From the NCBI GenBank assembly GCA_964540995.1, contig CAZIOU010000005.1:1-60791 (forward strand): a DNA stretch of 60,791 bases, in the 5' to 3' direction. This stretch comes from an uncultured Gammaproteobacteria bacterium. Its GTDB lineage: Bacteria; Patescibacteriota; Patescibacteriia; UBA1558; 2-01-FULL-52-15. A program made the position numbers and the translations under genes. The notes under the pieces were generated by a model. It saw only the letters and a list, made by a program, of their open reading frames with translations, had not been told where the DNA came from and ran no database searches. This document shows positions 1-29,004 of this stretch, piece by piece; positions within the stretch are counted from its first letter, which is position 1; every line of letters begins with the position of its first letter.

Positions 1-1361
1 GCGCTGATAATCTGCTGTACGATCTCAGTCAGCGAATCTTCATTACTTTCTTGATGCAGATCGAGTCGTTCGGCGATAGCATGTGGATCCTCACCCGTAG
101 TTACCATGGCGGAGAAGATTGTCTGGGCCGCTGAACTATTGACCTTACCCTGATAGACGAGGACGATAAATTCTGCCATGTCTTCCGGCGTGACTGGTGA
201 CTGCTCGATAGTCTTGCCAGCAGCGTTCAAATGTTTAAAAAGTTCAGTCGTGATCCAAGCGAAAGCCAACCGACCCAACTTCTTACGATTAGCTTGCCAG
301 ATCTCTTCTTCGCTGCCACTGGACTCTCCTGACGACAAGAGCCAGTCACGCAATTCACTAACTGTGGCTTCGAAATAATTGGCTGTAGGGATATCCATGG
401 AGATCAATTCAGCATCACCATAATTGAGCAAATACTCATCCATGAAGCGATTGCGTTTGGCGGACGGTAACTCTGGTAGCGAGCGCTTGATCGCTTCTAC
501 TTCTTCAGCTGTCAGTTCGACTGGCGGCAAATCTGGCTCGGGGAAGAAACGATAATCATTACTTTCTTCTTTGGTCCGCTGCTCCACGGTCACTCCTTCA
601 TCGTCCTTCCAGCCACGAGTACTACCCTGCTTCGGTGCCATATCACCCTCCCAGAGTGCTGTCTGCCTTTCGATCTCATAGTGCAAAGCACGTTCTACCG
701 CACGGAAAGAATTAACGTTCTTAATCTCTGTCTTGGGGTACAGCTTCACATCACCAACTGGTCGCAAGGAAATATTGGCATCGACACGCAACTGTCCCTT
801 CTCCATATCAGCATCCGACACTCCAAGGTAACGAGCAATCAAACGTAACTCTTGTAAGAAGCGTTTGGCTTCAGCGGGCGTGCGGAAATCAGGTTTGGTG
901 ACGATCTCAGCCAAAGGAGCTCCGGCACGATTGAAGTCAATCAGGCTCTGACCTTTGATGTGGAAATTCTTGCCTGTATCTTCTTCTAGGTGCATACGCT
1001 CAATACCGAATCGGCGTTCTTGTCCTTCGACTATCAGCAACAGATAGCCATCAGTAGCGATCGGCTGATCAAATTGGGTAATCTGATAGCCCTTGGGTAA
1101 ATCGGGGTAGAAATAATTTTTGCGATCAAATTTGGAAAAGCGATTAATATAGCAGTTAATGCCTAACCCCATACGAATTCCTTGTTGGATAGCTTCAGCG
1201 TTAACCAATGGCAAAGTGCCTGGGTGTCCGAGACAGACAGGACAGACAGCCGAATTGGGTTGCTCGTTATCACGATCATTAACGCAACGACAAAACATCT
1301 TGCTCTTAGTCTTGAGCTGCAGATGAATCTCTAGACCGATGATCGGTTCGTATTTAGACAT
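1..1361 (-). CDS. gatB: Asp-tRNA(Asn)/Glu-tRNA(Gln) amidotransferase subunit B, N-terminal ~453 aa (C-terminus runs off the window)
   Basis: Own translation of the minus strand from the ATG at 1361 gives MSKYEPIIGLEIHLQLKTKSKMFCRC..CPVCLGHPGTLP..RMHLEEDTGK..DYRFFPEPDLPP, a classic GatB pattern. It is missing from the ORF track only because it is open at the window edge. It overlaps the stop of the upstream ORF by 8 nt. Confidence 0.9.
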   Translation of the reverse strand, partial: MSKYEPIIGLEIHLQLKTKSKMFCRCVNDRDNEQPNSAVCPVCLGHPGTLPLVNAEAIQQGIRMGLGINCYINRFSKFDRKNYFYPDLPKGYQITQFDQPIATDGYLLLIVEGQERRFGIERMHLEEDTGKNFHIKGQSLIDFNRAGAPLAEIVTKPDFRTPAEAKRFLQELRLIARYLGVSDADMEKGQLRVDANISLRPVGDVKLYPKTEIKNVNSFRAVERALHYEIERQTALWEGDMAPKQGSTRGWKDDEGVTVEQRTKEESNDYRFFPEPDLPPVELTAEEVEAIKRSLPELPSAKRNRFMDEYLLNYGDAELISMDIPTANYFEATVSELRDWLLSSGESSGSEEEIWQANRKKLGRLAFAWITTELFKHLNAAGKTIEQSPVTPEDMAEFIVLVYQGKVNSSAAQTIFSAMVTTGEDPHAIAERLDLHQESNEDSLTEIVQQIIS

Positions 1362-2577
1362 GGAGACGTGATTGGATAGTATTCCAGATAGCGTTATTGA
1401 TAGCTTCTCTCGACATCATTGTACCATTGTCCATACACTCGATCAAAGCAAAATTATCAAACTTACTAGCGATCTCCAGATAGACTTGCTCCGCTGCCCG
1501 TAGATGCTCTAGATTGCCTTCAGTCAAATCACGTTTCTTCTCCCCGATATAGGAGCGCGGAGCTTTCTGATCAACTAATTGCTGACCTACTTCGGCAGGC
1601 ACATGCAGGATAATATTGAGGTCTGGCTTAGGGATACCACAAATCTCATATTCCAATTGATACAACCAGTCAAAGAACTTCTGCCGCTCCACCGGATCTT
1701 TGATCTGCGCACCCTGATGTCCCATGCTGGCCGTGACATACCGATTGGACAGGACAATATAGCCATCAGCCAATTGGCGCCGGATCTCGAAGCTGGCCGC
1801 GAAACGATCCAAAGCGTAGAAGAGTGACGCACGCTTAGAATTGACCTGCTCCAACGTACCATAGTTACCGTTCAGATATTGCTCACAGAAATAAGCTGAA
1901 GCTTGACCGTAGCGCGGGAAATCAGCTACCGCTACTCGGTAACCTTTGGCTTGTAGTCGCTGAGCCAACAATTGCACCTGTGTCCCTTTGCCCGAGCCAT
2001 CGGTTCCATCAATAACAATCAACTTACCCGTGACTACTGCTTTGCGCTGAGCATTGCAACTACGGCACAGGGGTAGATAGCTTTCTTTGCCGCCCACTTC
2101 GAATCGTTCGTGTGACTGTGATTTACGGTAAGACCGAGTGGCGTTATCAGCATTGCAATCAGCGCAGACAGCTTGCAGCTTCTCGATATATTCTGATACA
2201 CCCATCAATTCTTTAGTCGCTTCAAAAGCTCTATCCTCAGCATCCAGGTCGAGACCAGCCGTAATCACTTCTTTGCCAGCAGCCGCCAGCGTCTCAGCAA
2301 CGCGGATTAATTGCTGCGCATCCAAGAAATGGATCTCATCGATACCAATCACTTCAAATTCACCTACCAAAGGTAAGATATCGTTGGCGCTGGAAATGAC
2401 GATCGATGGTACCCGATGATTATCGTGTGTCACTACCTCCGTCTCGCTATAACGATTATCGATCTGCGGTTTGAATAAAACCACTTTCTTACCAGCAATA
2501 TCAGCACGCTTAAGATACCACAGCAGTCGACTGGTTTTGCCGGAGAACATGCAACCGGTTATTACTCGGATGGACAT
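1354..2577 (-). CDS. tdk-tmk: Fusion protein: thymidine kinase (N-terminal ~185 aa) + thymidylate kinase (C-terminal ~220 aa)
   Basis: The N-terminus has the TK P-loop GCMFSGKTS, IGIDEIHF and the zinc pairs CADC..CRSC. The C-terminal half restarts with the TMPK P-loop IVIDGTDGSGKGTQ and LSNRYVTASMGHQG (DRY-like region). Confidence 0.85.
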   Translation of the reverse strand: MSIRVITGCMFSGKTSRLLWYLKRADIAGKKVVLFKPQIDNRYSETEVVTHDNHRVPSIVISSANDILPLVGEFEVIGIDEIHFLDAQQLIRVAETLAAAGKEVITAGLDLDAEDRAFEATKELMGVSEYIEKLQAVCADCNADNATRSYRKSQSHERFEVGGKESYLPLCRSCNAQRKAVVTGKLIVIDGTDGSGKGTQVQLLAQRLQAKGYRVAVADFPRYGQASAYFCEQYLNGNYGTLEQVNSKRASLFYALDRFAASFEIRRQLADGYIVLSNRYVTASMGHQGAQIKDPVERQKFFDWLYQLEYEICGIPKPDLNIILHVPAEVGQQLVDQKAPRSYIGEKKRDLTEGNLEHLRAAEQVYLEIASKFDNFALIECMDNGTMMSREAINNAIWNTIQSRLHV

Positions 2578-2648: not shown

Positions 2649-4349
2649 TTATTGAATATCCTTCTCATCTAACTTTCTCTCCTTCACTCTCTGCTTGGCC
2701 TCTGCGTCACCCCTGCTCCAGAAATAATCATTGTGATCCACAAACTTCATTGCTTCCGCGCGCCAACTGCGATTCTTCTCAATTTCCTTATGCATCAGCT
2801 GACAGACCTTACGATACTGCGGATGGCCCTGTGGCGTCGTGCGTAGCTCCAGTAAATGATAAGCTTCGCGTTCATTAAAGGCTAAGATCCAACGGACTTT
2901 GTGACCGTGCAAAGTAATATACGAAGCTTCTAGGGGGAAATCTCTGGTCACGGTCTGATACAAGGCTTTGGCACGTTCATGACAGGCCAACACCTTGTCT
3001 TCGAAACCAGCCAACCTGATATCTTCGGGTACGATGAAACCCAGCATCGGACTGAAGCGCTGACGTAACTGACTGGTCATACGATGCCGCTCGAGATCTT
3101 TGTAAGTACCAAAGTCAGTTATCAGATCGAAAGTATAACGATAACCACTTTCCAAAGCTCGGTACGGTCTATCACGTCGGGTCTGACGTTCACCAATATA
3201 AGTCTGACGAATTTTTTCTTTTAATTCCGGAGTTAGTCTGCGTACCACCTTAATCAACTGCCGCAAAGAGTGGTGGCAATATTCATACAGCATCATGGCT
3301 ATCATTAGGACGTCTTCTTCATCACGTGTTAATTCACGCAATTGATCGGCCGAGATCATTGTCTGCTCCATGACCACAGTGTTAATCTTCTCCGCAATAG
3401 CGGATTCGCCACGATCAAGCAAGACAACCGGATCTTCGTCTTTGGCGTCGGTTGTGGCTAATAATTCAGAAGTCAAAGCGTTCATTGCCCGATGGACCAC
3501 TTGACGATACTCATTGGGTTTGGAACGTTTGACATAATGTGGGATGACTTTATCCAACTCTTGTTTGGCCTGCTGTGCTATGCTGGCCGCTTCTTGCAAC
3601 GTTGATGTCATTAGATGGGACAGTACACCCTGATAGAAACGACCATTACCAAACATACCAACATTAGTCTTAGTCGCCAGCGGAAGTAAGCTGCGCAAGG
3701 AATCACAAGCCTTGGTGCGAATATCCGAATTGTAAGTTATAGTGAAGGCTTTCTGATCTTTCTCCTCTTTCAGCTCGGCTAATTTCTGCTTCTGACCAGT
3801 ACCGAGGACATCATATTCCGCTTCTTCGATCGGCTTCAATTTCTGATAGTAGGCCTTCATCGGCTCCATCAGATCGCAATAAGTCTGGAAAATGAAATCC
3901 ATAGTCGCCATGTATTCGCTGGCGTGAGGCGAAGCCATGATGCGCGGATCACGATAATAGCGGAAATTGCCTTGGTCATCGCGTTGATCGTAGAAAACAT
4001 AGCGCGTCGATTGCTCAATGGGCGATCCGCCGATACGCCTGTCCTCTATCTCTTTGGAGATTAAGACAGAAATATTTTCGAAAGAAACATGCGCACCCTC
4101 TAATTCTCCGACTGAATCATCGCCATAAGCCACCAAGACACGTTCAATCAATTGCGAAGCTCGCTGCACATCCAGCATACCTTCTTTGATAAACTCTTTG
4201 AGCAACACCTCCCGGAAACCGCCTTTGGCTCGACTGTAGCGAGCATAAATAGAACCGACAATACCTTCTAGATTGGTGACACAGAAGACATCACCGTCCG
4301 GATCGGTAACATATTTTTTTAGGATTTCTTTTTCTTCAGGGGTAAACAT
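2649..4349 (-). CDS. thyX: FAD-dependent thymidylate synthase, long two-domain ThyX-like form (566 aa)
   Basis: The C-terminal half carries ERHRMTSQ (ThyX RHRxxS signature region). The N-terminal half has a degenerate YARYSR copy. The size recalls long chlamydial-type ThyX. The gene sits between dut and TK-TMPK. Confidence 0.6.
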   Translation of the reverse strand: MFTPEEKEILKKYVTDPDGDVFCVTNLEGIVGSIYARYSRAKGGFREVLLKEFIKEGMLDVQRASQLIERVLVAYGDDSVGELEGAHVSFENISVLISKEIEDRRIGGSPIEQSTRYVFYDQRDDQGNFRYYRDPRIMASPHASEYMATMDFIFQTYCDLMEPMKAYYQKLKPIEEAEYDVLGTGQKQKLAELKEEKDQKAFTITYNSDIRTKACDSLRSLLPLATKTNVGMFGNGRFYQGVLSHLMTSTLQEAASIAQQAKQELDKVIPHYVKRSKPNEYRQVVHRAMNALTSELLATTDAKDEDPVVLLDRGESAIAEKINTVVMEQTMISADQLRELTRDEEDVLMIAMMLYEYCHHSLRQLIKVVRRLTPELKEKIRQTYIGERQTRRDRPYRALESGYRYTFDLITDFGTYKDLERHRMTSQLRQRFSPMLGFIVPEDIRLAGFEDKVLACHERAKALYQTVTRDFPLEASYITLHGHKVRWILAFNEREAYHLLELRTTPQGHPQYRKVCQLMHKEIEKNRSWRAEAMKFVDHNDYFWSRGDAEAKQRVKERKLDEKDIQ

Positions 4350-4391
4350 TGATTATGACTGATAAATTGTTAACGCCGACACTCTCCATAT

Positions 4392-4547
4392 CTGTCTTTG
4401 CGAGAAATCCTTTGGCCTTCTGGTCGAAGGATTTCGCGGCAACCTAGCCTATCTGATGTCACACAATCATCGGGTGACTTCTATTGTGATAAACTGAAGT
4501 AATTTCAAGGGGATTGCTTCCCGCGTCAAACGCGGTCGCAATGACAG
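4392..4547 (+). mobile_element. MITE-like intergenic repeat, copy 1 (156 bp)
   Basis: Terminal inverted repeat CTGTCTTTGCGA...TCGCAATGACAG with internal hairpins (cgagaaatcctt/aaggatttcgcg; cgcg-tcaaa-cgcg). It aligns along its length with 9339-9490 (reverse orientation) and partly with 30636-30725 and 60606-60729. Confidence 0.8.
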
Positions 4548-4555
4548 AGTGTTGG

Positions 4556-4978
4556 TTAACGCCCGGTACTCCCGAACCCACCCTCAGCCCGACTGGTACT
4601 ATTTAATTCCTCCGCTTCTTCAAATTGCACCACTTCCACGGGTTGGAAAAGTACTTGTGCTACTTTATCTCCCACTTTCACTTCATATGGTTGATCGGAA
4701 GTATTGAGCAAAATAACGGTCCACTCACCGCGATAATTGGAATCTAGGACGCCGGCCAGACAGGTCAGGCCGTATTTGGCTGATAGACTACTGCGATCCA
4801 TGATCAAAGCCACATGCGTAGCGGGAAACTGCACCGCGAAGCCCAAGGGAAACGAATGGTGTTCTCCGGGTTGTAATATCTTGGCCTCCAGCGAAAACAA
4901 ATTCGCTCCTGCGTCTCCTTCGTGAATATAGGTTGGGATGTAGGCTTCTGGCCTAAGCTTTTTAAATTTGACGTGCAT
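4556..4978 (-). CDS. dut: dUTP diphosphatase
   Basis: AGANLFS..., GVLDSNYRGE and a C-terminal RAEGGFGSTG match dUTPase motifs. The track start at 4984 is TTG; the first ATG is at 4978. Confidence 0.85.
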   Translation of the reverse strand: MHVKFKKLRPEAYIPTYIHEGDAGANLFSLEAKILQPGEHHSFPLGFAVQFPATHVALIMDRSSLSAKYGLTCLAGVLDSNYRGEWTVILLNTSDQPYEVKVGDKVAQVLFQPVEVVQFEEAEELNSTSRAEGGFGSTGR

Positions 4979-5528
4979 AGCCAAGAGAGGTTAAAAGTTG
5001 ATCTAATTGTTGCTGCAAGGATTCAACCGAACCATCATTATTGATATGATACTCAGCTTGCTCCATCACACTGGGTATGGCCTGTTCTGGTTCTGCTTGT
5101 TGATCGAGGGCAAATTGCTCTCGACTCTTACCAGCGTCATCGGGATTCTCGCCCCGCGTGATCAGGCGTTGGTAGCGAATTGACTCTTCCGCTTCGATAG
5201 CAATCAGATGAAATTCAGGCAGCTGGCGTAAGTACTCGATATCAGCCAAACGACGGATACCTTCGACAATAACAATGTCATGACTGTCAGCTCGCACGTC
5301 TTCAGCAATAACTTGCGCCAAAATATTTTCTCCGAACTGCTGACGCAACAAACCAGACAAAGCTTGCATATTCTCTCTGGTAGTCGGCTGATGCAGACGT
5401 TCCAATACATCTCGCAGCATGGTGGAATAACGGTGACTACCGGCCTGATAGCGCTCAACGACATAAGCAGCAGCAGTACCCTTGCCGCTCACCATCAGCC
5501 CAGTGAAGCCGAGGACAATTTTAGCCAT
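4962..5528 (-). CDS. P-loop nucleotide/nucleoside kinase-like protein (CoaE / dNMP-kinase-like)
   Basis: Walker A GFTGLMVSGKGT at the N-terminus and size of 188 aa. It is embedded between dCMP deaminase and dut with overlapping stops and starts. Substrate is unknown. Confidence 0.5.
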   Translation of the reverse strand: MAKIVLGFTGLMVSGKGTAAAYVVERYQAGSHRYSTMLRDVLERLHQPTTRENMQALSGLLRQQFGENILAQVIAEDVRADSHDIVIVEGIRRLADIEYLRQLPEFHLIAIEAEESIRYQRLITRGENPDDAGKSREQFALDQQAEPEQAIPSVMEQAEYHINNDGSVESLQQQLDQLLTSLGYARQI

Positions 5529-6045
5529 TGGTTAATACGACGTTACCTTCAGCTGCTTGACGCTCTTCAATATCATGAGAGAACATCTCGGACAAACTTT
5601 GCTCCCATTCGGCGTTGCGTTGATACATCGTCACTTCTAGCCCAGCCTCTCGTAGATAATCAAGGGCTTGGGCGTTACGATAAATCTTACCCACCACCAC
5701 TCGTTTGATACCGGCAGCCACGATATATTTGGCACAGTGAATGCAAGGATTATACGTCGCGTACAAAGTAGCACCATCAGTACTCGATCCCTGCAAGACC
5801 GCAACTTGCAGAATAGTATTATGCTCGGCGTGAATCGTTCGCACGCAATGACCATCCTCGAGCAAATGACCAGCTTCGAGACAGTTAGGCTGACCTGAAG
5901 GCGCGCCGTTATAACCAGTGGCGATGATGCGCTTCTGCTGGACCAAGATAGCTCCGGCGGCCAGCCGATCGCAGGAACTTCGGGTTGCTACGATGCGCGT
6001 CATGGCCATGAAATAGTCGTCCCAATTGGGTCTATAGGTAGGCAT
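5521..6045 (-). CDS. Deoxycytidylate (dCMP) deaminase
   Basis: Zinc motifs HAEHN and PCIHCAKYI, and an N-terminal PNWDDYFM typical of ComEB/dCMP deaminases. ATG at 6045 (MPTYRPNWDDYF) is preferred over the 6132 extension. Confidence 0.85.
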   Translation of the reverse strand: MPTYRPNWDDYFMAMTRIVATRSSCDRLAAGAILVQQKRIIATGYNGAPSGQPNCLEAGHLLEDGHCVRTIHAEHNTILQVAVLQGSSTDGATLYATYNPCIHCAKYIVAAGIKRVVVGKIYRNAQALDYLREAGLEVTMYQRNAEWEQSLSEMFSHDIEERQAAEGNVVLTNG

Positions 6046-6181
6046 TGTGTATAAGGTAAGAGTTAGTGCCTGTATTGTACCAAAGGCCAGTCTAAGCGAA
6101 AACATTGACCGAGAGGGCCAACTGTTGCTCAATATAGAAAATCAAAAAACTGCCCCAGAGAGCAGCTTTTTGTGAAATATT

Positions 6182-15311: not shown

Positions 15312-15782
15312 CTAAGGTCTTCCGTATTTCTTCACCAACCAAGCCGAAACATAGCCTCGGTATTTACGCCTCGTTGCTAGCGGCATATTACGATAAGCAC
15401 CGATCTTGCCCCGACAGCTAACTGTACCGCACTGACATTTCATACGCCAACGCGGATGATCTTCAGTCATCTCATAATCCCACGTAATCTCCTCCCCGAC
15501 CTCAATATCGCGCATCGCCACTACTTGGAATAATTTCTTGATACCACAATTGGGTTCGCAGGAATGATTGATCAGACGCGCCACTCCCAGACAGTCTCGC
15601 CAGCGACGCGGCGCGAATTGGATGGTGTGATGATAGAGATCGTGATTCCAATGCGGATACTCCCATTCATAGATCGGCCCATCATACTCGGCTACCACTT
15701 CACCTTTCTTGATTTTACGGGAAACGAAAACTCCCCTGCCTTTGCCTCGGGAAGTTTGTACGTATATCTTCTTACTATCCAT
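15312..15782 (-). CDS. SET-domain protein (putative protein-lysine methyltransferase)
   Basis: RLINHSCEPNC, GEEITWDY and a post-SET Cys cluster CQCGTVSCRG. The start overlaps the pheT stop (TAATG). Confidence 0.8.
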   Translation of the reverse strand: MDSKKIYVQTSRGKGRGVFVSRKIKKGEVVAEYDGPIYEWEYPHWNHDLYHHTIQFAPRRWRDCLGVARLINHSCEPNCGIKKLFQVVAMRDIEVGEEITWDYEMTEDHPRWRMKCQCGTVSCRGKIGAYRNMPLATRRKYRGYVSAWLVKKYGRP

Positions 15783-19690: not shown

Positions 19691-19735
19691 AAAAAATCAA
19701 GAAAAACCCCTCACCACAACGAATGTGATGAGGGG
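19691..19735 (-). terminator. Intrinsic terminator after the nuclease gene
   Basis: On the minus strand: cccctcatcaca-ttcgt-tgtggtgagggg, followed by tttttcttgatttttt. Confidence 0.75.
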
Positions 19736-19740
19736 CGTAA

Positions 19741-20862
19741 TTAATCGACTTTGAGAGTCAGTTGTGCCACATCGGCTCGGCGACGGAGCTGCTGATAGGT
19801 CCGTGCCGACGTACCAGACGATGCAGTCGGCTCGATCATGACACCTAATTCTAGCTGTGCCAGGTTGGTCGATCGACCATAACGCTCGACGATCTGCTGT
19901 GCCAGCAGAGCACGTCGTTCAGACAAACTCAACTGGGCATAACGCTGACAATCTACCACATGACCGCAGTAGCCACAGTGCTGCCCGCGGGGTAACTTGG
20001 GACTGATAGTACCTGTCTCCAGATCAGTCAGGTCAAAGAAAGGATAGACGTCAGTTACGGAAGCACCCTTAAGGATGGCCAAATAATAATTGGCCACCCG
20101 ACGCATTAGTCGTTGCACTTCATCGAAAGCTCCAGCCTCTCGCAAGGGCACATCGACGATAACATCGCGTCCATAATTATGAACTTGCATCTGTACCAGA
20201 GGCGGACTACCAGGTAAACGGGTACGGATAGCTGTCTCGTATAACCATTGGTAGATGGTGAACTGCGTGCCTCCGAGAACCTGATGCAAGGCGTATTCAC
20301 TGGGTTTGTAATCGACGATACGCGCACCCCAGACCTGACTGCCGTCAGCTAACGCGAACGTACCAACCTCAATCCGGTCAAAGATACCAGTGACTGTCAA
20401 TCCGCTCCAATCTATGGTCGCTCGCCGCTCCACCAACCGCTGTTCGATCTTCTCATCGAGACGCATCGGATGTGCCCGAGCGAAGAACAGCTTGAGCAGA
20501 TTGACACCACGGCCAAAGAATTGACCAGGTTGGTCACTATCCTTCCAAGCAACAGTCGTAGGAGCAGCGCGGCGACTATGAAATCCATGATCGCCTTTGA
20601 CCGCTCCCCACCACAGATTGCCGAAAGCTCCGATCAACTTGGATTCTTCTTGATAGGGGTAACGTTTGGTACTACGGTGTGGTGTGAAAAATTGAGCAAA
20701 CAAATAGTGCATCATCTGCCCATGTACCGCCGCTGGATTCTCTGGCACCGGAATCTCCACGATACCATCCCAGAATCCTTGCAACGGACAAGCGGTCGCT
20801 GTCGACAGGAACGAATGACTCATGCGATGCAACTTGGATTTCAGACTCCGTCGCTTACTCAT
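19741..20862 (-). CDS. PD-(D/E)XK nuclease with Cas4/AddB-type Fe-S cysteine pattern
   Basis: N-terminal Cys (TATACPLQ), GIFDRIE, IVDYKPS, QFTIYQWLY (QxxxY) and a C-terminal CGYCGHVVDC (C-x2-C-x5-C). ATG at 20862 follows GGAGGGAG and overlaps the M16 stop as ATGA. The track start at 20883 is GTG. Confidence 0.7.
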   Translation of the reverse strand: MSKRRSLKSKLHRMSHSFLSTATACPLQGFWDGIVEIPVPENPAAVHGQMMHYLFAQFFTPHRSTKRYPYQEESKLIGAFGNLWWGAVKGDHGFHSRRAAPTTVAWKDSDQPGQFFGRGVNLLKLFFARAHPMRLDEKIEQRLVERRATIDWSGLTVTGIFDRIEVGTFALADGSQVWGARIVDYKPSEYALHQVLGGTQFTIYQWLYETAIRTRLPGSPPLVQMQVHNYGRDVIVDVPLREAGAFDEVQRLMRRVANYYLAILKGASVTDVYPFFDLTDLETGTISPKLPRGQHCGYCGHVVDCQRYAQLSLSERRALLAQQIVERYGRSTNLAQLELGVMIEPTASSGTSARTYQQLRRRADVAQLTLKVD

Positions 20863-22130
20863 GTACTTCTCCCTCCACGCCACAGGCGCTTGATCTTGTA
20901 ACGATCAGCCCGTGTGACTGGACCGATGACCGTCAGGTAACGATTAGCTGGCGCCAGATAGCGCTTAGCTGCAGCATTGACGTCTTGCAGACGGACTCGA
21001 GCGATACGACGTCGCAACGCAGGATAGAGTTCCAGATTACTGTGTACGAGCAGTTGAGCCAAGAGCAACCGACCGATGTATTCTGACTCTCTCCAGCGCC
21101 GTTGATGGTAACTCAAGGCTGCATGCTTGGCAGCATCGAATAGATCCGTAGTGATACCACCAAGATAATACCGGTCCAATGTTCGACGTATCAAAGTCAA
21201 CAGCGGTAGGACTTTGGGCCGACCGCAAGAAGTAGCGATCGTCAGCAACCCGACTTCCGGATAGTGCCAGATGTCGGAATGTAGCGAATAAACCAGACCT
21301 CGCTGTCGTGCTTGTAACCATAGCGGCGAAGAATTCATATCACCGATACAGTTATTGAGTAACTGTAGAGCCGCTCGCTGACGATGACCGAACCCTGGTA
21401 CCGGTATAGTTGCTACCAACGATACTTGCTGTCGTTCTGCCCGCATGATGCTAATGCGACTGGTCGGTTGCGGTATATCAAATGAGCGTAAGGCAATCGG
21501 CTGCTGTTGCGGACTCAAAGAACCGAAAAGTTGGTTGATAGTCGTGATAACCGGCGTAGCCTCAAATCGCCCTACGACCGTGATGGCCATGATCCGGGGA
21601 TCAAGCAATCGCTCCCAGTAACGCAAAACTCGCTCTAAAGTCAGTCGCTGCAGACTAGACGGCGTGCCGACCACATGTCGACTCAATCCGTGACGGGGAA
21701 ATAATTGACGATCGCGCAACAAGGCGACTTGATTCTCAGGATCGTCTGCAATGTCGGCCAATTCTTCACGGATGCAATGGCCTTCGAATTCGAAATCAGC
21801 TTGGGTAAAGTCTGGGTTGAGCAATAGCTCTGCCATCAACTCCAGACCCCAACGCCAATGTCGTGCCGGAATCCTGATCCACCACTTGGTCATGTCCTCG
21901 CTGGTTTCAGCATTGAAATCAGCTCCCAAAAGATCCAGCTGACAAGCGATCTGCTTGCGAGCGCGGAAACATTCACCAGCCAAATGCTCAATATAGTGCG
22001 TCACGCCGCGCCAACTGCGAGATTCGTCAGCCGACCCTCGGCCAACTCCGATGGTAATAACAACGTCGGTATCAGATTTAGGCACGAACACATAAGCCAT
22101 CCCGTTCTTCAAATGCCCTCGACGATACAT
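20859..22130 (-). CDS. M16-family (pitrilysin/insulinase-like) zinc peptidase
   Basis: Inverted zinc motif HYIEH with downstream FNAETSEDMTKWW. GAGGAGGA lies upstream of the ATG. Confidence 0.8.
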   Translation of the reverse strand: MYRRGHLKNGMAYVFVPKSDTDVVITIGVGRGSADESRSWRGVTHYIEHLAGECFRARKQIACQLDLLGADFNAETSEDMTKWWIRIPARHWRWGLELMAELLLNPDFTQADFEFEGHCIREELADIADDPENQVALLRDRQLFPRHGLSRHVVGTPSSLQRLTLERVLRYWERLLDPRIMAITVVGRFEATPVITTINQLFGSLSPQQQPIALRSFDIPQPTSRISIMRAERQQVSLVATIPVPGFGHRQRAALQLLNNCIGDMNSSPLWLQARQRGLVYSLHSDIWHYPEVGLLTIATSCGRPKVLPLLTLIRRTLDRYYLGGITTDLFDAAKHAALSYHQRRWRESEYIGRLLLAQLLVHSNLELYPALRRRIARVRLQDVNAAAKRYLAPANRYLTVIGPVTRADRYKIKRLWRGGRST

Positions 22131-22178
22131 CTATTCCTCCTCAAAGGGAAGGTATGACAAAGAACCTTAGACTGTTGT

Positions 22179-22207
22179 ATCTAAAGCTAAAATGTCACAA
22201 GTGTCAA
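22179..22207 (-). promoter_or_regulatory. Candidate promoter TTGACA-17-TTAGAT (or 18-TAGATA)
   Basis: -35 at 22207-22202, about 45 nt upstream of the M16 start. Confidence 0.45.
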
Positions 22208-22216
22208 CTAGCCAAA

Positions 22217-22513
22217 TTAATTGATATAGCGTATTCGATCGACTACTTCGGCGGCGGCTTTCTGATTGATATAGTCGATAATCTCACCTTCACGATTACG
22301 CAATTCCTGTCCCAGCACAGGAGAAATCACCGCTACCGTCAAAACATGGTCACGTAAATACAAAGGGCGCGCACGATCTTTCATTCGTCCTGACCACAAT
22401 TGATCAACAATCGCATTAAAATATTCCAAAGCCATAGCTGCCTCCACTTGATAGCGAAGGCCTTTACGTTGGATATTGCGATTGAGTAATGAAGAGAGTT
22501 CTTGGAAAGGCAT
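22217..22513 (-). CDS. DUF721/DciA-like small protein
   Basis: 98 aa with the pattern ..W..ivg...a....p..lrd..LtVaV.sp.l.qEL......i...iN. as remembered for DUF721. It lies next to the helicase. Confidence 0.55.
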   Translation of the reverse strand: MPFQELSSLLNRNIQRKGLRYQVEAAMALEYFNAIVDQLWSGRMKDRARPLYLRDHVLTVAVISPVLGQELRNREGEIIDYINQKAAAEVVDRIRYIN

Positions 22514-22587
22514 AGTAGGTTGGTAGATTGGTAGGATAGTAGGTGAAGATAGACAATAGCTACTGCCTACACACCTACGTGCCTACT
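22514..22587. repeat. GTAGG/CCTAC-word hairpin region
   Basis: gtaggttggtagattggtaggatagtaggtg ... ctactgcctacacacctacgtgcctac. There are five GTAG on the left and their complements on the right; taggtg pairs with caccta. Confidence 0.6.
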
Positions 22588-25567
22588 TCATGGCAACCGG
22601 ACAAATCTGATTAAAATCACAATACTTACACTGATTACCAGGAGTAGCCACAAAGTTGGACTGCTTGATACCATCGGCCGTGGTCGTAATCCACTCTTTG
22701 ACTTGAGCTAGATCTTTCTGACTCGCTTGGAATTCGATCGGCTTATTCTGATCCAGATAATAGAACATCAAGGATTCCGTCTCGGCTTTGAATATATCCT
22801 GGGCCGCTAACTGATAAATCAGCAACTGCTTCTTATCATCAAAGGTCAGCTTCTCCTTCACTTTACCAGTTTTATAATCCATGATACGCCACTTGCCATT
22901 GGTGGTTGGATCAATTCGATCAATCACGCCACGGATGGTGTATTCACCGACTTTAACATTAAAGCCTTTTTCTAGATAGAGTGGTATAGGAACGTTGGCA
23001 GAAATCTGCTGGTAAAACTCTTTAAGGATGCGCTTACCATTGTCATGATATTGAGCTTTATTCTTCTCGTCAAAAAACCAATCATCCTGCCACGCCGCTT
23101 CATACATTTCCATTAACTCTTTATAAGACACCAGAGTCCCGTCTTCTCGAGTACCAAGTACCGAGTCGCCAGCACCAGCACCAAACAAATCCGCCTGCTT
23201 CCCGACAGTACTCCGCTCCATTACGGCTGCAAAGAAACTTTGCAGCGTCTTGTGCATCGTCTGACCAAAAGAGAATACCGCCGCGCCCTTGGCTGGTATC
23301 TTGATCACATGAGCGTAATAATATTGTAGCGGACAATTCTCGAAAGCTTTCAACTGGGTGAATGACAATTTGGTAGGTAACTTGTAGTTGGTTTGACGAC
23401 GTGCTTTCTTAGTTCGCTCGGCAGCGAGTTCATCATTTTTCACCACCAGATCTTGATTGATCTCTTGTACCGGAAAATTCTCTAACTTCATCTCTGTGAG
23501 GAATCGCGAAGGTTTACGCTTCTTGGCGCCACCATAATCCTCGGCCAAGGTCAGGAATACCTCTTTACGAGCACGCGTCAACGCCACATACATCAGGCGA
23601 CGTTCTTCTTGTAAGTGCGCTTCGCCTTCGGGCAAAGTGTCTTTGATTAGTGCATCAGGCAATTCGATAGCGTCTGCTCGTTCAATCGATGGGAAACGCA
23701 GGTGCACCAAACCGACAATGAAGACATAATCAAATTCTAAACCTTTGGAGCCGTGAATAGTCATGATCTTGATGGTCTCCGGCCCTTCTTCGATATCTTG
23801 AACCATCTTGCCAGCTTCACCCGACTCTAGCTCCAGACTGATGTACTCGACGAAATTATGAATCGTCGATCCTAGATTCTCATCTTCCCAAGTACGTACT
23901 TTCTTATAGAATTGATTCAGCAAAAGTAATTGTTCTTTACTCTCGGCTGTTTCTTCCAGTGTTAGCCATGACAAATAACCAGAGTCTTCCAAGAAATGAT
24001 AGACAATAGCTGACACCGGCTGGGTCAGAGCTTGCTGCTTATGATTATCTAAATCAGTGATCAACTTGGCCAGACCACGCGCTCCGGCCAATGATAATGT
24101 CACTTGGCCGTGATAATTCTTGGCGGCATGATAGAGACTCCAGCTCTTGCGTCTGGCTAGATGGGCCACATTAACAATATCTTCGTGAGTCAATCCTATA
24201 AACGGTAAAGTGATTATTTTATACAAGCTGGGCGACTCATGATAATTATCCAGCAACTTGAGATAGTTCAAGATGTTGAGAATAATCTCCTGCGTATATA
24301 AGCCTTTGGCAGCCACGAACTGATGCGGTACTCCGACCTGACGGAAGAAGCGAACAAACTTCTGCGCCTGCTCATTGTTACGAGATAGTATGGCGACCTG
24401 TCCCCAATTAAAATCTTCTTCCGTATTTTTGACTTTCAATATTTCTTCCAAAACGCCCCTCACTTCATCCTCACCCGAAGCGTAACATTTAACTGCTACC
24501 TCTCCCGGAGCATCAGAATGCGATATCAATTGCTTACTCAATTTCTGCTCGGCCTTCTTACCCTTGCGTCCTTGCGCCAACTTAACTTCCAGTCGATCGG
24601 GATTATTGAGTTGGATAAAATTGTAAGCACTATCTAAGATAGCCTGACCACTGCGGTAGTTATCAGTCAGGTAGATCTCTCCCGCTTGAGGGAAATCTTT
24701 CTTGAACGCTAGAATATTAGAAACAGAAGCCCCGCGAAATTTATAAATTGCTTGATCATCATCACCGACCACCATAATATTCTGATCAGCGCCGACCAAT
24801 AGTTTGACCAACTCATATTGCGCCCAGTTGGTATCTTGGAACTCATCGACCAAGACATATTTAAATTGCTGCTGATACCTTTGTCGCAAGTGAGACCGTT
24901 TCTGAAATAGCTGCAAACAATAATTAATCAGATCGCCGAAATCAAGAGCATTATTTTCTAACAAAACTTGTTGGTAGACGTGATAGGCATTGGCCACCTC
25001 AGTGAGCCGTGCAATCTCTTGTTGCTGCGCTTCCTTGTCACCGGTCGTATCACTGTCCAATTTCAGTCCTTGGGCGTATTGGAGATAGTCATCGGGATAG
25101 ACCGTTTCGTCTTTGCAACGTGAGAAATGATTGATCAGTGCGTGAATAAAGCTAGTAGGATTACCAAGAGGACGATAATAGTCCAGATCAAATCGATGTA
25201 GATTCTCTCGTACCAACATCCAAGCTGACGTCTGATCAAGGACTTTAAATTCTTTGGGTAGTCCAATCTCCAGCGCATGCTGTTTCAGGATCTTTTCAGC
25301 GAAAGCATGAAACGTCTGTATCCACAGATCGACATAGCCGAGCGGTAATAATTTATCGACACGCTCCTCCATCTCGGCAGCGGCCTTATCGGTAAAGGTC
25401 AAGGCTAATATTTCATCTGGTTTGGCCAGACCTTTCTCAATTAGCCAAGCAATCCTTTGGGTAATAACAGTCGTCTTACCAGTGCCAGCACCAGCGACGA
25501 GAATAACCGGCCCCGATGGGTGCTGGACAGCTAATTGCTGATTAATATTGAGCTTGGAGATATCCAT
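22583..25567 (-). CDS. UvrD/PcrA-type helicase fused to a C-terminal PD-(D/E)XK (AddA/RecB-like) nuclease
   Basis: AGAGTGKTT, VDEFQDTN, TIHGSKGLEF and YVALTRA. The C-terminus has IDRID..IMDYKTGK and CKYCDFNQICP. Confidence 0.85.
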   Translation of the reverse strand: MDISKLNINQQLAVQHPSGPVILVAGAGTGKTTVITQRIAWLIEKGLAKPDEILALTFTDKAAAEMEERVDKLLPLGYVDLWIQTFHAFAEKILKQHALEIGLPKEFKVLDQTSAWMLVRENLHRFDLDYYRPLGNPTSFIHALINHFSRCKDETVYPDDYLQYAQGLKLDSDTTGDKEAQQQEIARLTEVANAYHVYQQVLLENNALDFGDLINYCLQLFQKRSHLRQRYQQQFKYVLVDEFQDTNWAQYELVKLLVGADQNIMVVGDDDQAIYKFRGASVSNILAFKKDFPQAGEIYLTDNYRSGQAILDSAYNFIQLNNPDRLEVKLAQGRKGKKAEQKLSKQLISHSDAPGEVAVKCYASGEDEVRGVLEEILKVKNTEEDFNWGQVAILSRNNEQAQKFVRFFRQVGVPHQFVAAKGLYTQEIILNILNYLKLLDNYHESPSLYKIITLPFIGLTHEDIVNVAHLARRKSWSLYHAAKNYHGQVTLSLAGARGLAKLITDLDNHKQQALTQPVSAIVYHFLEDSGYLSWLTLEETAESKEQLLLLNQFYKKVRTWEDENLGSTIHNFVEYISLELESGEAGKMVQDIEEGPETIKIMTIHGSKGLEFDYVFIVGLVHLRFPSIERADAIELPDALIKDTLPEGEAHLQEERRLMYVALTRARKEVFLTLAEDYGGAKKRKPSRFLTEMKLENFPVQEINQDLVVKNDELAAERTKKARRQTNYKLPTKLSFTQLKAFENCPLQYYYAHVIKIPAKGAAVFSFGQTMHKTLQSFFAAVMERSTVGKQADLFGAGAGDSVLGTREDGTLVSYKELMEMYEAAWQDDWFFDEKNKAQYHDNGKRILKEFYQQISANVPIPLYLEKGFNVKVGEYTIRGVIDRIDPTTNGKWRIMDYKTGKVKEKLTFDDKKQLLIYQLAAQDIFKAETESLMFYYLDQNKPIEFQASQKDLAQVKEWITTTADGIKQSNFVATPGNQCKYCDFNQICPVAMK

Positions 25568-25625
25568 ATCTAGGGGCTATTGTAGCTAGCCAATAGCATA
25601 ATTGCAACCAACATCTATCATCCAC

Positions 25626-26288
25626 TTATTCAAGCTCCTGATGCAACTGTTTAAAGTTATCGACGATAAAATCTGCACCCGCCTGCTGTAGGACGGCAGC
25701 AGAAAATGAATTGGTGATACCGATTGCGAGACAGCCAGCGGCTTTGGCTGACAAGATACCATTATCAGAATCCTCTAGGACCATAGCTTCGACGGGAGTC
25801 ACACCTAACTTCTGCATCGTGACGATATAGGGCTCGGGATTGGGCTTACCTTGAGAAACTTGATCACCAGTCACAACAATATCAAAATAGGATTCAAGAT
25901 TATGAATAGAGAAAATTAATTCCTGAATACCCTTACTGCTAGATGTGGTGAGGGCAACCAGAGGGAACCGAGCTCGGATAAATTGCAGAAAATCTATCGC
26001 TCCAGCAAATAATGGAGTCTGCTGTAGAGAAGATTTAACCAATTGTCTTTTCTCCTCAATCAAATCATCAACATTGAGGGAACTAGTGGCGGCAAAATTA
26101 CTCAGAATGTAACTAAAAATGGCTTGGTTGGTTTTACCTTTGAAATGATCCCATTCTGAAGCTGGGATATCGATCCCATGATTACGACAAATATCCTGCT
26201 CTATCTTCACGTACAGTGCTTCCGAATCTACCAATACTCCATCCATATCAAAGATAAAGGCTTTCTTATTTACTAGTAGTTTATTCAT
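25626..26288 (-). CDS. HAD-superfamily hydrolase (beta-phosphoglucomutase-like subfamily)
   Basis: FIFDMDGVLVDSE, LTTSS, KPNPEPY and EDSDNG. The track start at 26327 is TTG; the ATG is at 26288. Confidence 0.8.
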   Translation of the reverse strand: MNKLLVNKKAFIFDMDGVLVDSEALYVKIEQDICRNHGIDIPASEWDHFKGKTNQAIFSYILSNFAATSSLNVDDLIEEKRQLVKSSLQQTPLFAGAIDFLQFIRARFPLVALTTSSSKGIQELIFSIHNLESYFDIVVTGDQVSQGKPNPEPYIVTMQKLGVTPVEAMVLEDSDNGILSAKAAGCLAIGITNSFSAAVLQQAGADFIVDNFKQLHQELE

Positions 26289-26463
26289 TGGGCTATTGTA
26301 ACCACTGTTATCTATTATTGCAAACAAAAAAGCAGGCTCCGAATTATTAGAATAATAATTGGATAAACCTGCTTTACGCTATAGCCTATTGGCTATAGGT
26401 GAGCCTCTTCGACAATTAGTATACTATTGTCGAAATTACTGAGCATTCTGGAAAGTCTGATCT

Positions 26464-26913
26464 TTAGACGTAGTAAATCGGACTGCCGTCTTCCATACAC
26501 GCGACTAATGCGCGACGCTGTAGACGGAAATTGGTACAACCTTGGTACAAGGCCCATAGTACATCCCGCGCCCAACCGCCTGGAAAATATACACGATTTG
26601 ACGGTTGATTCAGAAAGATACGATGATCCCAGTTATGTTGGTACCTGCACCATGTCAGGAAACCAACTTCATCATGTCGCAGATAGGAAAGTGGAAACCT
26701 CCTATTCATTACCGGCACACCTTGGATAGCAAAGCGACGAATCAAATCTCTACGAGACCAATGCAATTTGAATGTAGCATTGATCAGCCGCAACAGATCA
26801 TCAGCATCACACCATGCCCACCGTCGCCAACTCTGATGCCTATCAAAACTCTTTTCGGACACCCTGATTTCGGGAAGTCTGCTGATTGGCGGTCTGACAT
26901 ATTGAAACGACAT
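26464..26913 (-). CDS. Hypothetical Trp/Arg-rich protein, 149 aa (orphan)
   Basis: GGAGGGG lies 3 nt upstream of the ATG, with its own TTGACA promoter. No motif recognised. Confidence 0.6.
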   Translation of the reverse strand: MSFQYVRPPISRLPEIRVSEKSFDRHQSWRRWAWCDADDLLRLINATFKLHWSRRDLIRRFAIQGVPVMNRRFPLSYLRHDEVGFLTWCRYQHNWDHRIFLNQPSNRVYFPGGWARDVLWALYQGCTNFRLQRRALVACMEDGSPIYYV

Positions 26914-26970
26914 AACCCCTCCACAAAATGCTATTTACAAAGAACCGGCCACCGCTTTGATGGTAATTAT

Positions 26971-26999
26971 TATATAACATATAATTAATATTGTGTCAA
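26971..26999 (-). promoter_or_regulatory. Sigma70-type promoter TTGACA-17-TATATA (TATAAT at 19)
   Basis: -35 at 26999-26994 and -10 at 26976-26971. It overlaps the T-tract of the preceding terminator. Confidence 0.6.
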
Positions 27000-27011
27000 T
27001 AGTAAAGCCCC

Positions 27012-27948: not shown

Positions 27949-29004
27949 TCACAAAACTCTACGTGCAGTTGCTTGGATGACCTCCAAGGGTTCCAGTCTG
28001 CGGGTATGGATGTCTACCACACTACGTATCTGACGTAAGTACGGCCAAAGCTCCGACACATGATCGCGGATGGCTGCTGCAGCCTGATGATGAAGTCCGG
28101 AAACTTTATCGACTTTGAAAGGACGATCGTCACCGCTCGAATACGGTGCTGAAGTCATAAGAACGATGTCTTCAGCCTTGATCCGACCATCCAGCAGATT
28201 ATGCCAGACGATGCGACCAGCCGTGATAACCGCCTGCAGATAATCTGGGTCGAAGTGACCGACGATCAGCGCCTTATTGGGCAAATGCAGCCAATCATAA
28301 CCACGACCAACAGCGATCACGGATTCGCAATGCCTAAGTTGTTCGATAGTGCGACCAGAACAACGAGTCTCCTGCACTCGATCGGCGTTACGGACCAGAA
28401 CTTCAGTCGCGTCGCGAACAACATCGCTAGGCATATCCGCATGATGACGGAGCAACCAATTGGCAATAAGATCACGATCAGTCCCTACGTCTGCCATATC
28501 CAGATCATCGTGGCCATCTTCACTCGCCAGAACCAGACAATCCCAGTCAGTATCGAGACCAACCAAGATAGCGTAGTAATGCGGATGAGCCAACACGCGA
28601 CGACATTGATGTGTCAGCTGTAGCGCCGAAGAACGTGCCTGATCCAAGTTATGCTTATGACCAGCACAACCAAGCGAGTCGTTGTCACTGCGTGAATAAT
28701 GATAGGTCACAAATAGCAGTCCACGCTTATTCCGGCATCTGCCATAGCGTTGCCACTCGGCCAAAGATGCATTGAAAATTGGCCAACGAGTATCAAACAT
28801 GCCACCGATATTTCTCCATGGCTGAATGATTCCCAGTGGTGTGTTGGTAGCGATCGGTAAATGCAGTCGTCCATCCATACACTTCAGAGCACCTAGTTCT
28901 GTTGGATGACGCGACCGATACTCCCTGCGCCGCTCCTGCTGACTCAGAAATTCCCTTGACTGCTTGGCATTGAGATCCATCAGGAATTCGATTCCCGTCG
29001 GCAT
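27949..29004 (-). CDS. Hypothetical protein with beta-carbonic-anhydrase-like CxDxR...H-x10-C pattern (CsoSCA-like), paralog 1
   Basis: KC42MD44GR46, TYH102YSRSDNDSLGC113. It is about half identical by eye to the neighbouring ORF. It has its own promoter, GGGGAGG directly upstream and its own terminator. The coding call is solid; the function is a hypothesis. Confidence 0.5.
   Translation of the reverse strand: MPTGIEFLMDLNAKQSREFLSQQERRREYRSRHPTELGALKCMDGRLHLPIATNTPLGIIQPWRNIGGMFDTRWPIFNASLAEWQRYGRCRNKRGLLFVTYHYSRSDNDSLGCAGHKHNLDQARSSALQLTHQCRRVLAHPHYYAILVGLDTDWDCLVLASEDGHDDLDMADVGTDRDLIANWLLRHHADMPSDVVRDATEVLVRNADRVQETRCSGRTIEQLRHCESVIAVGRGYDWLHLPNKALIVGHFDPDYLQAVITAGRIVWHNLLDGRIKAEDIVLMTSAPYSSGDDRPFKVDKVSGLHHQAAAAIRDHVSELWPYLRQIRSVVDIHTRRLEPLEVIQATARRVL

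Follow-up and report, generated by a model that had tools for sequence, protein, structure and literature searches.

Candidate Phyla Radiation (CPR) bacteria have reduced genomes, and their means of replicating and repairing DNA are poorly understood. Solo Cas4-like nucleases of CPR and DPANN genomes have been proposed to act in repair or defence (Hudaiberdiev et al., 2017; PMC5704561). These enzymes are stand-alone iron-sulphur (Fe-S) PD-(D/E)XK nucleases of uncultivated bacteria with small genomes; they lie outside CRISPR loci and are mainly inherited vertically (PMC5704561). Similar catalytic domains occur in AddB and in AdnA-AdnB, which combine a RecB-type PD-(D/E)XK core with an iron staple of one plus three cysteines, and in Dna2 and Exo5, which are eukaryotic Fe-S nucleases that act on single-stranded DNA (ssDNA). 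Among the proteins that bind the bacterial sliding clamp (β-clamp, DnaN), Pol III α, Pol IV, Hda and MutS/L have C-terminal motifs of the type QL(S/D)LF or QLxLxL, and RecB has QVEMEF. Bacterial M16B peptidases, such as BH2405 (3hdi), the Thermus protein 3eoq and MPP-β-like proteins, share an M16 and an M16_C domain in ~420 aa and the motifs HxxEH and ExxxxxxE.

Here we describe a pair of adjacent genes, encoding an M16 zinc peptidase and an Fe-S PD-(D/E)XK nuclease, in a 60,791-nucleotide stretch of DNA (contig CAZIOU010000005.1 of assembly GCA_964540995.1; the whole stretch is hereafter called the window). The reading that we favour, and to which we give an even chance, is that the pair is a core operon, probably of a clamp-recruited housekeeping Fe-S nuclease with an M16 peptidase that is dedicated to it in some CPR lineages. 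A literature search for a pairing of M16 with Cas4 or PD-(D/E)XK proteins, or for a bacterial protease-nuclease crosslink-repair operon, found no relevant description, in agreement with a preliminary description of this DNA that knew of no described system with such a pairing. Further, the report on solo Cas4-like nucleases does not mention a peptidase neighbour (PMC5704561). Stand-alone Cas4-like nucleases of CPR were thus already known in general terms (PMC5704561), and the M16 pairing and the clamp-type motifs are what appears to be new.

The peptidase-nuclease operon and its products

The upstream gene of the pair (20859-22130; 423 aa), identified by its open reading frame (ORF) and Pfam matches, encodes the M16B zinc peptidase and the downstream gene (19741-20862; 373 aa; ATG at 20862, stop at 19741) encodes the PD-(D/E)XK nuclease. 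Both genes and all of the expression signals described below are on the minus strand. The TGA of the M16 gene (20861-20859) overlaps the ATG of the nuclease gene in an ATGA (20859-20862), as read from the sequence, and this overlap has the form of translational coupling. The ORF listing also contained a GTG at 20883 that would lengthen the nuclease ORF; we placed the start at the ATG because this codon has a Shine-Dalgarno (SD) sequence and fits the N-termini of the homologues. The SD of the M16 gene, GAGGAGGA (22142-22135), and that of the nuclease gene, GGAGGGAG (20876-20869, inside the M16 coding sequence), each end 6 nt before the ATG; the former was kept in an alignment with the related loci L005, L002 and L001. 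The coupled two-gene structure and the strong SDs reported in the preliminary description were therefore recovered.

A promoter-like element (22178-22207) upstream of the M16 gene consists of TTGACA (22207-22202) and a weak -10 sequence (TTAGAT/TAGATA). The consensus promoter scanner made no call at this position because of the weak -10 sequence. The closest named relative, the Candidatus Komeilibacteria metagenome-assembled genome (MAG) GCA_043801745 (L001), has TTGACA-N18-TAGATT at the matching position, and the promoter hexamers were invariant in a four-way alignment of the dciA-M16 intergenic region. Of the shared TTGACA promoter proposed earlier, the conserved -35 hexamer thus stands, and the weak -10 sequence leaves the rest of the assignment tentative. 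The strong terminator that had been noted after the nuclease gene was confirmed as an intrinsic terminator (19736-19706, within an element at 19696-19736) with a 13-bp stem including 7 GC pairs, followed by a T-run; the Komeilibacteria relative has a terminator with a 19-bp stem in the same place. A terminator scan of the window found none between dciA and the M16 gene, so that read-through from upstream could occur. Metatranscriptome coverage of the pair consisted of one 198-nt contig (19792-19989), which is too short to show co-transcription.

Two further sequence blocks were seen around the two genes. In the 5' untranslated region, downstream of the promoter-like site and upstream of the SD of the M16 gene, there is a block GTTCTTTGTCAT...ACCTTC (22146-22165, minus strand). 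The Komeilibacteria MAG (L001, ~255-285) shares this block even though nucleotide identity in the coding flanks is only ~73%, and in the window the block forms AAGGT-N10-ACCTT; it may be an operator or leader element. On the other side, strains L005-L007 have ~380 extra bases (L005, 12432-12814; corresponding to ~19699-19703 of the window) between the nuclease terminator and the gene for a small membrane protein.

The peptidase matched Peptidase_M16 (E = 9.8e-14) and M16_C (E = 1.8e-25) of Pfam, both above the gathering score, and this order of two domains in ~420 aa is that of M16 subfamily B. The zinc motif H45-Y-I-E48-H49 is intact, as the preliminary description had stated, and E116/E123 align with E120/E127 (ExxxxxxE) of a canonical paralogue. 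No signal peptide was found on the paired peptidase. These sequence features suggest that it is a catalytically intact, cytosolic M16B enzyme. The canonical paralogue is encoded by a second M16B gene in the window (45050-46321, minus strand; Pfam E = 7e-39 and 1.5e-39), which lies 23 kb from the paired gene and has the motif HFVEH. The best PDB sequence match of the paired M16 was 3hdi (B. halodurans BH2405), with a score of 95 bits, compared with 218 bits for the canonical protein, and the two proteins of the window are 24% identical to each other. Given the canonical M16B elsewhere in the window, the nuclease-paired M16 is best regarded as a specialised paralogue. It thus differs from described bacterial M16B peptidases in its divergence, its richness in Arg and its operonic association with a nuclease. 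In an alignment, the five nuclease-linked M16s all kept HxxEH and ExxxxxxE and lacked signal peptides, and a neighbour-joining tree placed them apart from the canonical copy and four unrelated M16s (bootstrap 64/100).

The sole Pfam domain match of the nuclease was PDDEXK_1 (PF12705, E = 9e-11), and none of the NCBIfam models matched it, including those for AddB/AdnB and TIGR00372. In a 36-sequence alignment of the nuclease family, H52, W106, R134, E145, D162, K186, Q200, Y204, C296, C299 and C305 were invariant, and C25 and D184 were conserved in >=90% of the sequences. The RecB motifs of the protein (D162, D184-Y-K186 and Q200xxxY204) and its cysteines (C25 and C296xxC299x5C305), which had been noted earlier from the single sequence as a full set of RecB-family motifs and a 1+3 cysteine pattern, are thus conserved family-wide. 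One N-terminal Cys followed by CxxCx5C is the pattern of the Fe-S 'iron staple', and such a cluster is accordingly predicted for the nuclease. In all 36 aligned members PDDEXK_1 was the sole domain matched, except that one member also weakly matched Pfam Dna2.

An AlphaFold2 model of the nuclease, built on the 36-sequence family alignment, had a predicted local distance difference test score (pLDDT) of 91 and a predicted template modelling score (pTM) of 0.90, with a low-confidence tail. The best PDB matches of this model in Foldseek were the AddB nuclease domain (4ceh_B), ACE1, the AdnA nuclease domain, Dna2, Exo5 and Cas4. The template modelling (TM) scores were ~0.4-0.45 and the identities 10-16%; we therefore regard the nuclease as a divergent member of the Fe-S 'iron-staple' class.

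Comparison with the named members of this class separated the nuclease from each of them. Pfam Cas_Cas4 (PF01930) matched neither the window nuclease nor any of the 36 family members, and neither cas1/cas2 nor a CRISPR array was found near the nuclease gene at any fetched family locus. By profile and by CRISPR association, therefore, it does not appear to be Cas4 proper. With the solo Cas4-like nucleases of CPR and DPANN (PMC5704561) it shares the stand-alone Fe-S PD-(D/E)XK architecture, the kind of host, the location outside CRISPR loci and mainly vertical inheritance, but its chain is longer and includes an inserted helical region and a tail, and it lacks the Cas_Cas4 match. With AddB and AdnA-AdnB it shares the RecB-type core and the iron staple (best Foldseek matches 4ceh_B and 9np6_A), and a UvrD-family helicase is often encoded close by. 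Unlike these proteins, it consists, at 373 aa, of a nuclease domain without a motor or helicase-like domain, matches no AddB/AdnB family model, carries a C-terminal tail with a clamp motif and has an M16 partner in some lineages. Dna2 and Exo5 belong to the same structural class (5eax, 7lw7), and a role on replication or repair intermediates is plausible; the nuclease differs from them in being bacterial, in lacking a helicase domain and in its identity of only 10-12%.

The nuclease family, its neighbourhoods and its tails

An exhaustive HMMER profile search of 1.84 billion cluster representatives (E <= 1e-3) yielded 81 clusters of the nuclease family. By comparison, word-indexed protein searches gave just 3-6 relatives per gene, or 4 with the family profile, and a search for related loci with an 11-sequence alignment gave 5 genome and 4 metagenome loci. 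All 81 clusters are stand-alone proteins of about 300-440 aa, most of them 320-400 aa, and none is AddB-sized. Named members came from Komeilibacteria, Kerfeldbacteria and the 'Patescibacteria group'. The genome loci were labelled Parcubacteria or Saccharibacteria, apart from one labelled 'Gammaproteobacteria' (L009, CAZRZA010000011.1). The latter has the same gene order as the Parcubacteria MAG L010, with ArgS 58% and DnaB 79% identical, and is therefore probably a mis-binned or mislabelled CPR contig. Thus, every family member whose source is named or whose gene context was fetched looks like CPR/Patescibacteria, and the family is apparently restricted to CPR.

We obtained the gene context of 18 distinct nuclease loci, which fell into three groups. 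Six loci (L017, L018, L019, L021, L022 and L023) have the order [lexA-]uvrD(~700 aa)-[SpoU/GT2]-nuclease-mraZ-rsmH-ftsL-ftsI-murE; L023 represents the deepest, short-tailed subgroup of the nuclease. Another six (L009, L010 and L013-L016) have the order argS-nuclease-dnaB. The remaining six carry an M16 gene directly upstream of the nuclease gene, in four contexts with no shared flanks: between dciA on one side and pheST on the other (the window, L001 and L003); with VIT1 upstream and DivIC, GIY-YIG and lepA downstream (L011); with a tRNA and dnaJ downstream (L012); and with a cation ATPase upstream (L020). The M16-nuclease junction was tight in every M16-linked locus in which it could be read, the two genes overlapping by up to 35 nt or standing at most 16 nt apart, with an SD; this count leaves out L012, where an assembly gap lies between the two genes. 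Note that a 554-aa ORF at L012 appeared to be an M16-nuclease fusion. We rejected this candidate because its halves are joined across 100 N, and L012 therefore shows adjacency on one scaffold and no fusion.

The survey of neighbourhoods thus gave an answer in two parts: the adjacency of M16 and nuclease genes recurs in four independent contexts, and 12 of the 18 distinct loci have no adjacent M16. The obligatory pairing assumed in the preliminary description does not hold. The gene orders suggest that the pairing is recurrent and moves as a unit, without being obligatory, and that the nuclease family, set among genes of replication, repair and division, behaves as a core gene that is passed on vertically.

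C-terminal to the last cysteine, the nucleases have a tail of 35-100 residues with variable sequence (~65 residues in the window protein). The tail of the window protein contains two β-clamp-binding-type motifs: QLELGV (residues 336-341; 19840-19857, minus strand), which lies in a low-confidence linker and resembles the consensus QLxLxL, and QLTLKV (residues 367-372; 19747-19764, minus strand), which lies one residue from the end. QLTLKV is in a tail that is predicted to be disordered (residues 370-373 have pLDDT < 50 in AlphaFold2), and its Q367 is invariant in the family alignment A3. The tails of relatives end in QLSLDF, QLELF, QLSLSL, QIDLF, QLKLF, QLELPF, QLVLPF and similar sequences. We searched for the pattern Q[LIVM]x[LIVMF]x?[LIVMF], using 1000 composition-preserving shuffles as the control. 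The pattern was present in 39 of 63 tails, compared with 5.3±2.2 in the shuffles (maximum 13 in 1000), and its density was 10.1 per 1000 aa in the tails and 0.43 in the protein bodies. The motif often lies 0-3 residues from the C-terminus and is found in both M16-linked and M16-free nucleases. Since the tails are homologous, the enrichment represents a conserved motif and not 39 independent events.

We know of no stand-alone Cas4/AddB-type nuclease that has been reported as a clamp client. The motifs of the tails agree with the bacterial clamp-binding consensus, given as C-terminal QL(S/D)LF (PMC9690074) and as QLxLF or QLxLxL (PMC4564189), and in E. coli RecB a clamp motif of the nuclease domain, QVEMEF, has been validated (bioRxiv 10.1101/2025.08.20.671105). 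Like the clamp clients named above, the nuclease has a consensus-like motif at the end of a flexible tail and, like Pol III α, it has a second, internal copy (PMC4564189; bioRxiv 10.1101/2025.08.20.671105). By its motifs the nuclease thus resembles β-clamp-binding proteins, and it is predicted to bind DnaN.

A subgroup of the family (P0050, P0067, P0068, P0073, P0074 and P0081) has a ~140-residue tail with a four-Cys zinc-ribbon-like module (KYGRCxxCGYxLxKxGKCxNCxxW), which replaces or adds to the clamp-type motif.

Chromosomal setting of the pair

The core genes of the window form one co-directional array, which includes tdk-tmk, thyX, rplA/rplK, nusG, gyrB, pheST, the ATP synthase operon, metG, a clpB-like gene, tgt and ileS. 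The upstream neighbour of the M16 gene encodes DciA of the helicase-loader family (22217-22513, minus strand; Pfam PF05258). Two genes upstream lies a gene for a UvrD/PcrA-like helicase fused to a 4-Cys PD-(D/E)XK domain (22583-25567, minus strand), and this nuclease domain shares 26% identity with the stand-alone nuclease (E = 4e-8). The Komeilibacteria MAG has the same order of dciA, M16, nuclease, small membrane protein, pheS and pheT, with PheS 81%, DciA 80% and the membrane protein 81% identical to those of the window. No mobile-element genes were seen in the window flanks of the pair.

In comparisons with near-identical strains, the ratio of nonsynonymous to synonymous substitution rates (dN/dS) was 0.04-0.07 for both genes and 0.02-0.05 for the flanks. 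Both genes are therefore functional and constrained, and over long distances they diverge faster than aminoacyl-tRNA synthetase genes. The pair is 97.8% identical to that of strain L005, compared with 91-95% for the flanks. We considered a recombination island over the pair and rejected it: the identity profile in 300-bp windows was that of a general mosaic, in which pheT had similar peaks and no clear boundary appeared.

The guanine-plus-cytosine (GC) contents of the two genes, 0.524 and 0.521, are the highest of the 48 genes in the window (mean 0.466, standard deviation 0.027), which bears out the earlier impression that the pair is richer in GC than its flanking genes. The excess is mainly at the first and second codon positions, reflecting 11.6% and 8.6% Arg and little Lys; the GC content at third positions is ~1 standard deviation above the mean. 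The excess is also found in the Komeilibacteria orthologues and in an argS-dnaB family member from a genome with 39% GC. It is therefore a trait of the family and not a sign of recent import. The preliminary description had placed the pair in an islet with an accessory context. This view is contradicted by the core-gene flanks, by the synteny with a relative whose PheS is 81% identical and by dN/dS values like those of the neighbours. These comparisons indicate that the pair forms a bicistronic operon in the chromosome of a Komeilibacteria-like CPR bacterium and is inherited vertically.

Several features of the surrounding DNA were also observed. The region 25586-27004, ~1.4 kb that includes a low-GC (0.41) gene for a HAD-family hydrolase (25626-26327), is replaced by ~70 bp in L005-L007, and is thus a strain-specific indel right upstream of the helicase-nuclease gene. 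Within the latter gene, 24163-24426 (minus strand) is 78% identical to L005, with indels, compared with 90-96% over the remainder of the gene (994 aa here and 1025 aa in L005); this segment appears from the alignment to be a hypervariable insert in the UvrD 2B/1B area. SET-domain methyltransferases are uncommon in bacteria; a SET-domain protein of 156 aa is encoded at 15312-15782 (minus strand), its start overlapping the pheT stop, and is kept in L005 and L006. A 351-aa protein encoded next to the ATP synthase operon (27949-29004, minus strand) matched the catalytic domain of carboxysome shell carbonic anhydrase (CsoSCA_cat) weakly, though above the threshold (E = 1.5e-9); such a protein is unexpected in a CPR bacterium and is also present in L005-L007. 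Finally, a fusion of thymidine kinase and thymidylate kinase in one 407-aa ORF (1354-2577, minus strand) forms, together with the adjoining stretch (2649-6132, minus strand) that encodes a ThyX of unusual length (566 aa) and a dCMP deaminase, a compact cluster for deoxythymidine triphosphate salvage.

Possible roles of the pair

In the reading that we favour, DnaN would recruit the nuclease through the tail motifs to replication forks or repair intermediates. The recruited nuclease would process ssDNA ends or flaps, possibly with a UvrD-type helicase, and the M16 would trim, mature or clear the ~65-residue tail of the nuclease or its clamp-binding peptides. The M16 is probably a dedicated accessory factor because it accompanies the nuclease in several lineages, forming a translationally coupled unit with it. 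Processing or turnover of the tail is the simplest guess for its function, since M16 chambers accommodate unfolded peptides of roughly that length. A bolder version would make the pair a sliding-clamp-tethered protease-nuclease module peculiar to CPR, in which the nuclease is docked on DnaN at forks and the M16 either cuts the clamp-binding tail, as an on/off switch, or helps to remove peptide-DNA adducts, as a bacterial counterpart of clamp-recruited DNA-protein-crosslink repair; we give this version a slim chance.

Several points weigh against the favoured reading. Of the 18 distinct nuclease loci, 12 have no adjacent M16, the tree of the nuclease family is star-like and the nuclease-linked M16 clade has modest support (64/100). 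In the compact genomes of CPR bacteria, unrelated genes commonly overlap by a short stretch. The pair is more diverged from the Komeilibacteria MAG than its flanks are (nuclease 59% and M16 39% identical), and this faster divergence could reflect relaxed or diversifying selection. The shuffle test counted related tails rather than independent events, and clamp binding, the DNA substrate and any biochemical link between peptidase and nuclease are points that we infer.

Some of these points would also be expected if the adjacency had no functional meaning and a housekeeping nuclease and a second general peptidase were merely co-transcribed in a compact genome. The two thirds of family loci without an adjacent M16, the weakly supported M16 clade and the gene-dense CPR genomes with their mixed operons, of which the window, as one co-directional array, is an example, all agree with this explanation. 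On the other hand, the same order and tight junction recur in four contexts that have nothing in common in their flanks, and a reduced genome that retains a divergent second M16B under purifying selection points to a specific role for it. We therefore consider a meaningless adjacency unlikely, while allowing it a real share of the probability. It is improbable, by a similar weighing, that the protein supplies a minimal AddAB/AdnAB-like resection machine with its second nuclease, so that it and the neighbouring UvrD-type helicase-nuclease would each act on one strand. The top structural matches of the nuclease are indeed the nuclease domains of AddB and AdnA, it is homologous to the nuclease domain of the helicase itself, and a UvrD-type helicase gene lies within 0-3 genes in the window, L017, L019, L022 and L023. 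However, the nuclease has neither a helicase-like N-terminal domain nor an NCBIfam AddB/AdnB match nor AddB-sized relatives; no helicase is encoded within ~5 kb in the argS-dnaB loci, L011, L012, L018, L020 and L021; the helicases that are nearby at other loci are only 29-31% identical to that of the window and lack nuclease domains; and the M16 would be left unexplained. Thus, of the earlier suggestion that the nuclease is the missing AddB partner of the helicase, the structural resemblance and the recurrent helicase neighbour stand, whereas the protein itself, a nuclease domain with no AddB-sized relative in 81 clusters, does not have the form of AddB.

The preliminary description had also proposed a defence or abortive-infection effector module of protease and nuclease. 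The combination of the two activities follows the logic of such modules, the pair outpaces its flanks in divergence over long distances and has a somewhat higher GC content, a defence or repair role has been suggested for solo Cas4-like CPR genes (PMC5704561), and ACE1, an Argonaute-associated and defence-associated Cas4-family protein, is among the structural matches. Yet neither protein matched PADLOC-DB 2.0, no relatives were found in the IMG/VR viral collection and the sole PHROG match was a weak, generic exonuclease. Further, the core syntenic position of the pair is kept between genomes at ~80% amino acid identity, family members are fixed beside dnaB or the dcw cluster, dN/dS is like that of the neighbours and mobile-element genes are absent nearby. 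A role in defence is therefore very improbable.

The clamp-recruited nuclease with its dedicated M16 accordingly remains the reading that we favour. A small nuclease family that looks restricted to CPR, its fixed positions (dnaB, uvrD/lexA and the dcw cluster) and its clamp-type tail would together define a new clamp client and offer a first way into the study of how CPR bacteria process forks and ends. If the coupling of M16 and nuclease is not functional, the locus consists of two housekeeping genes and the idea of defence can go. A functional coupling would tie a peptide-degrading chamber of the insulinase type to DNA metabolism, a link for which we know of no precedent.

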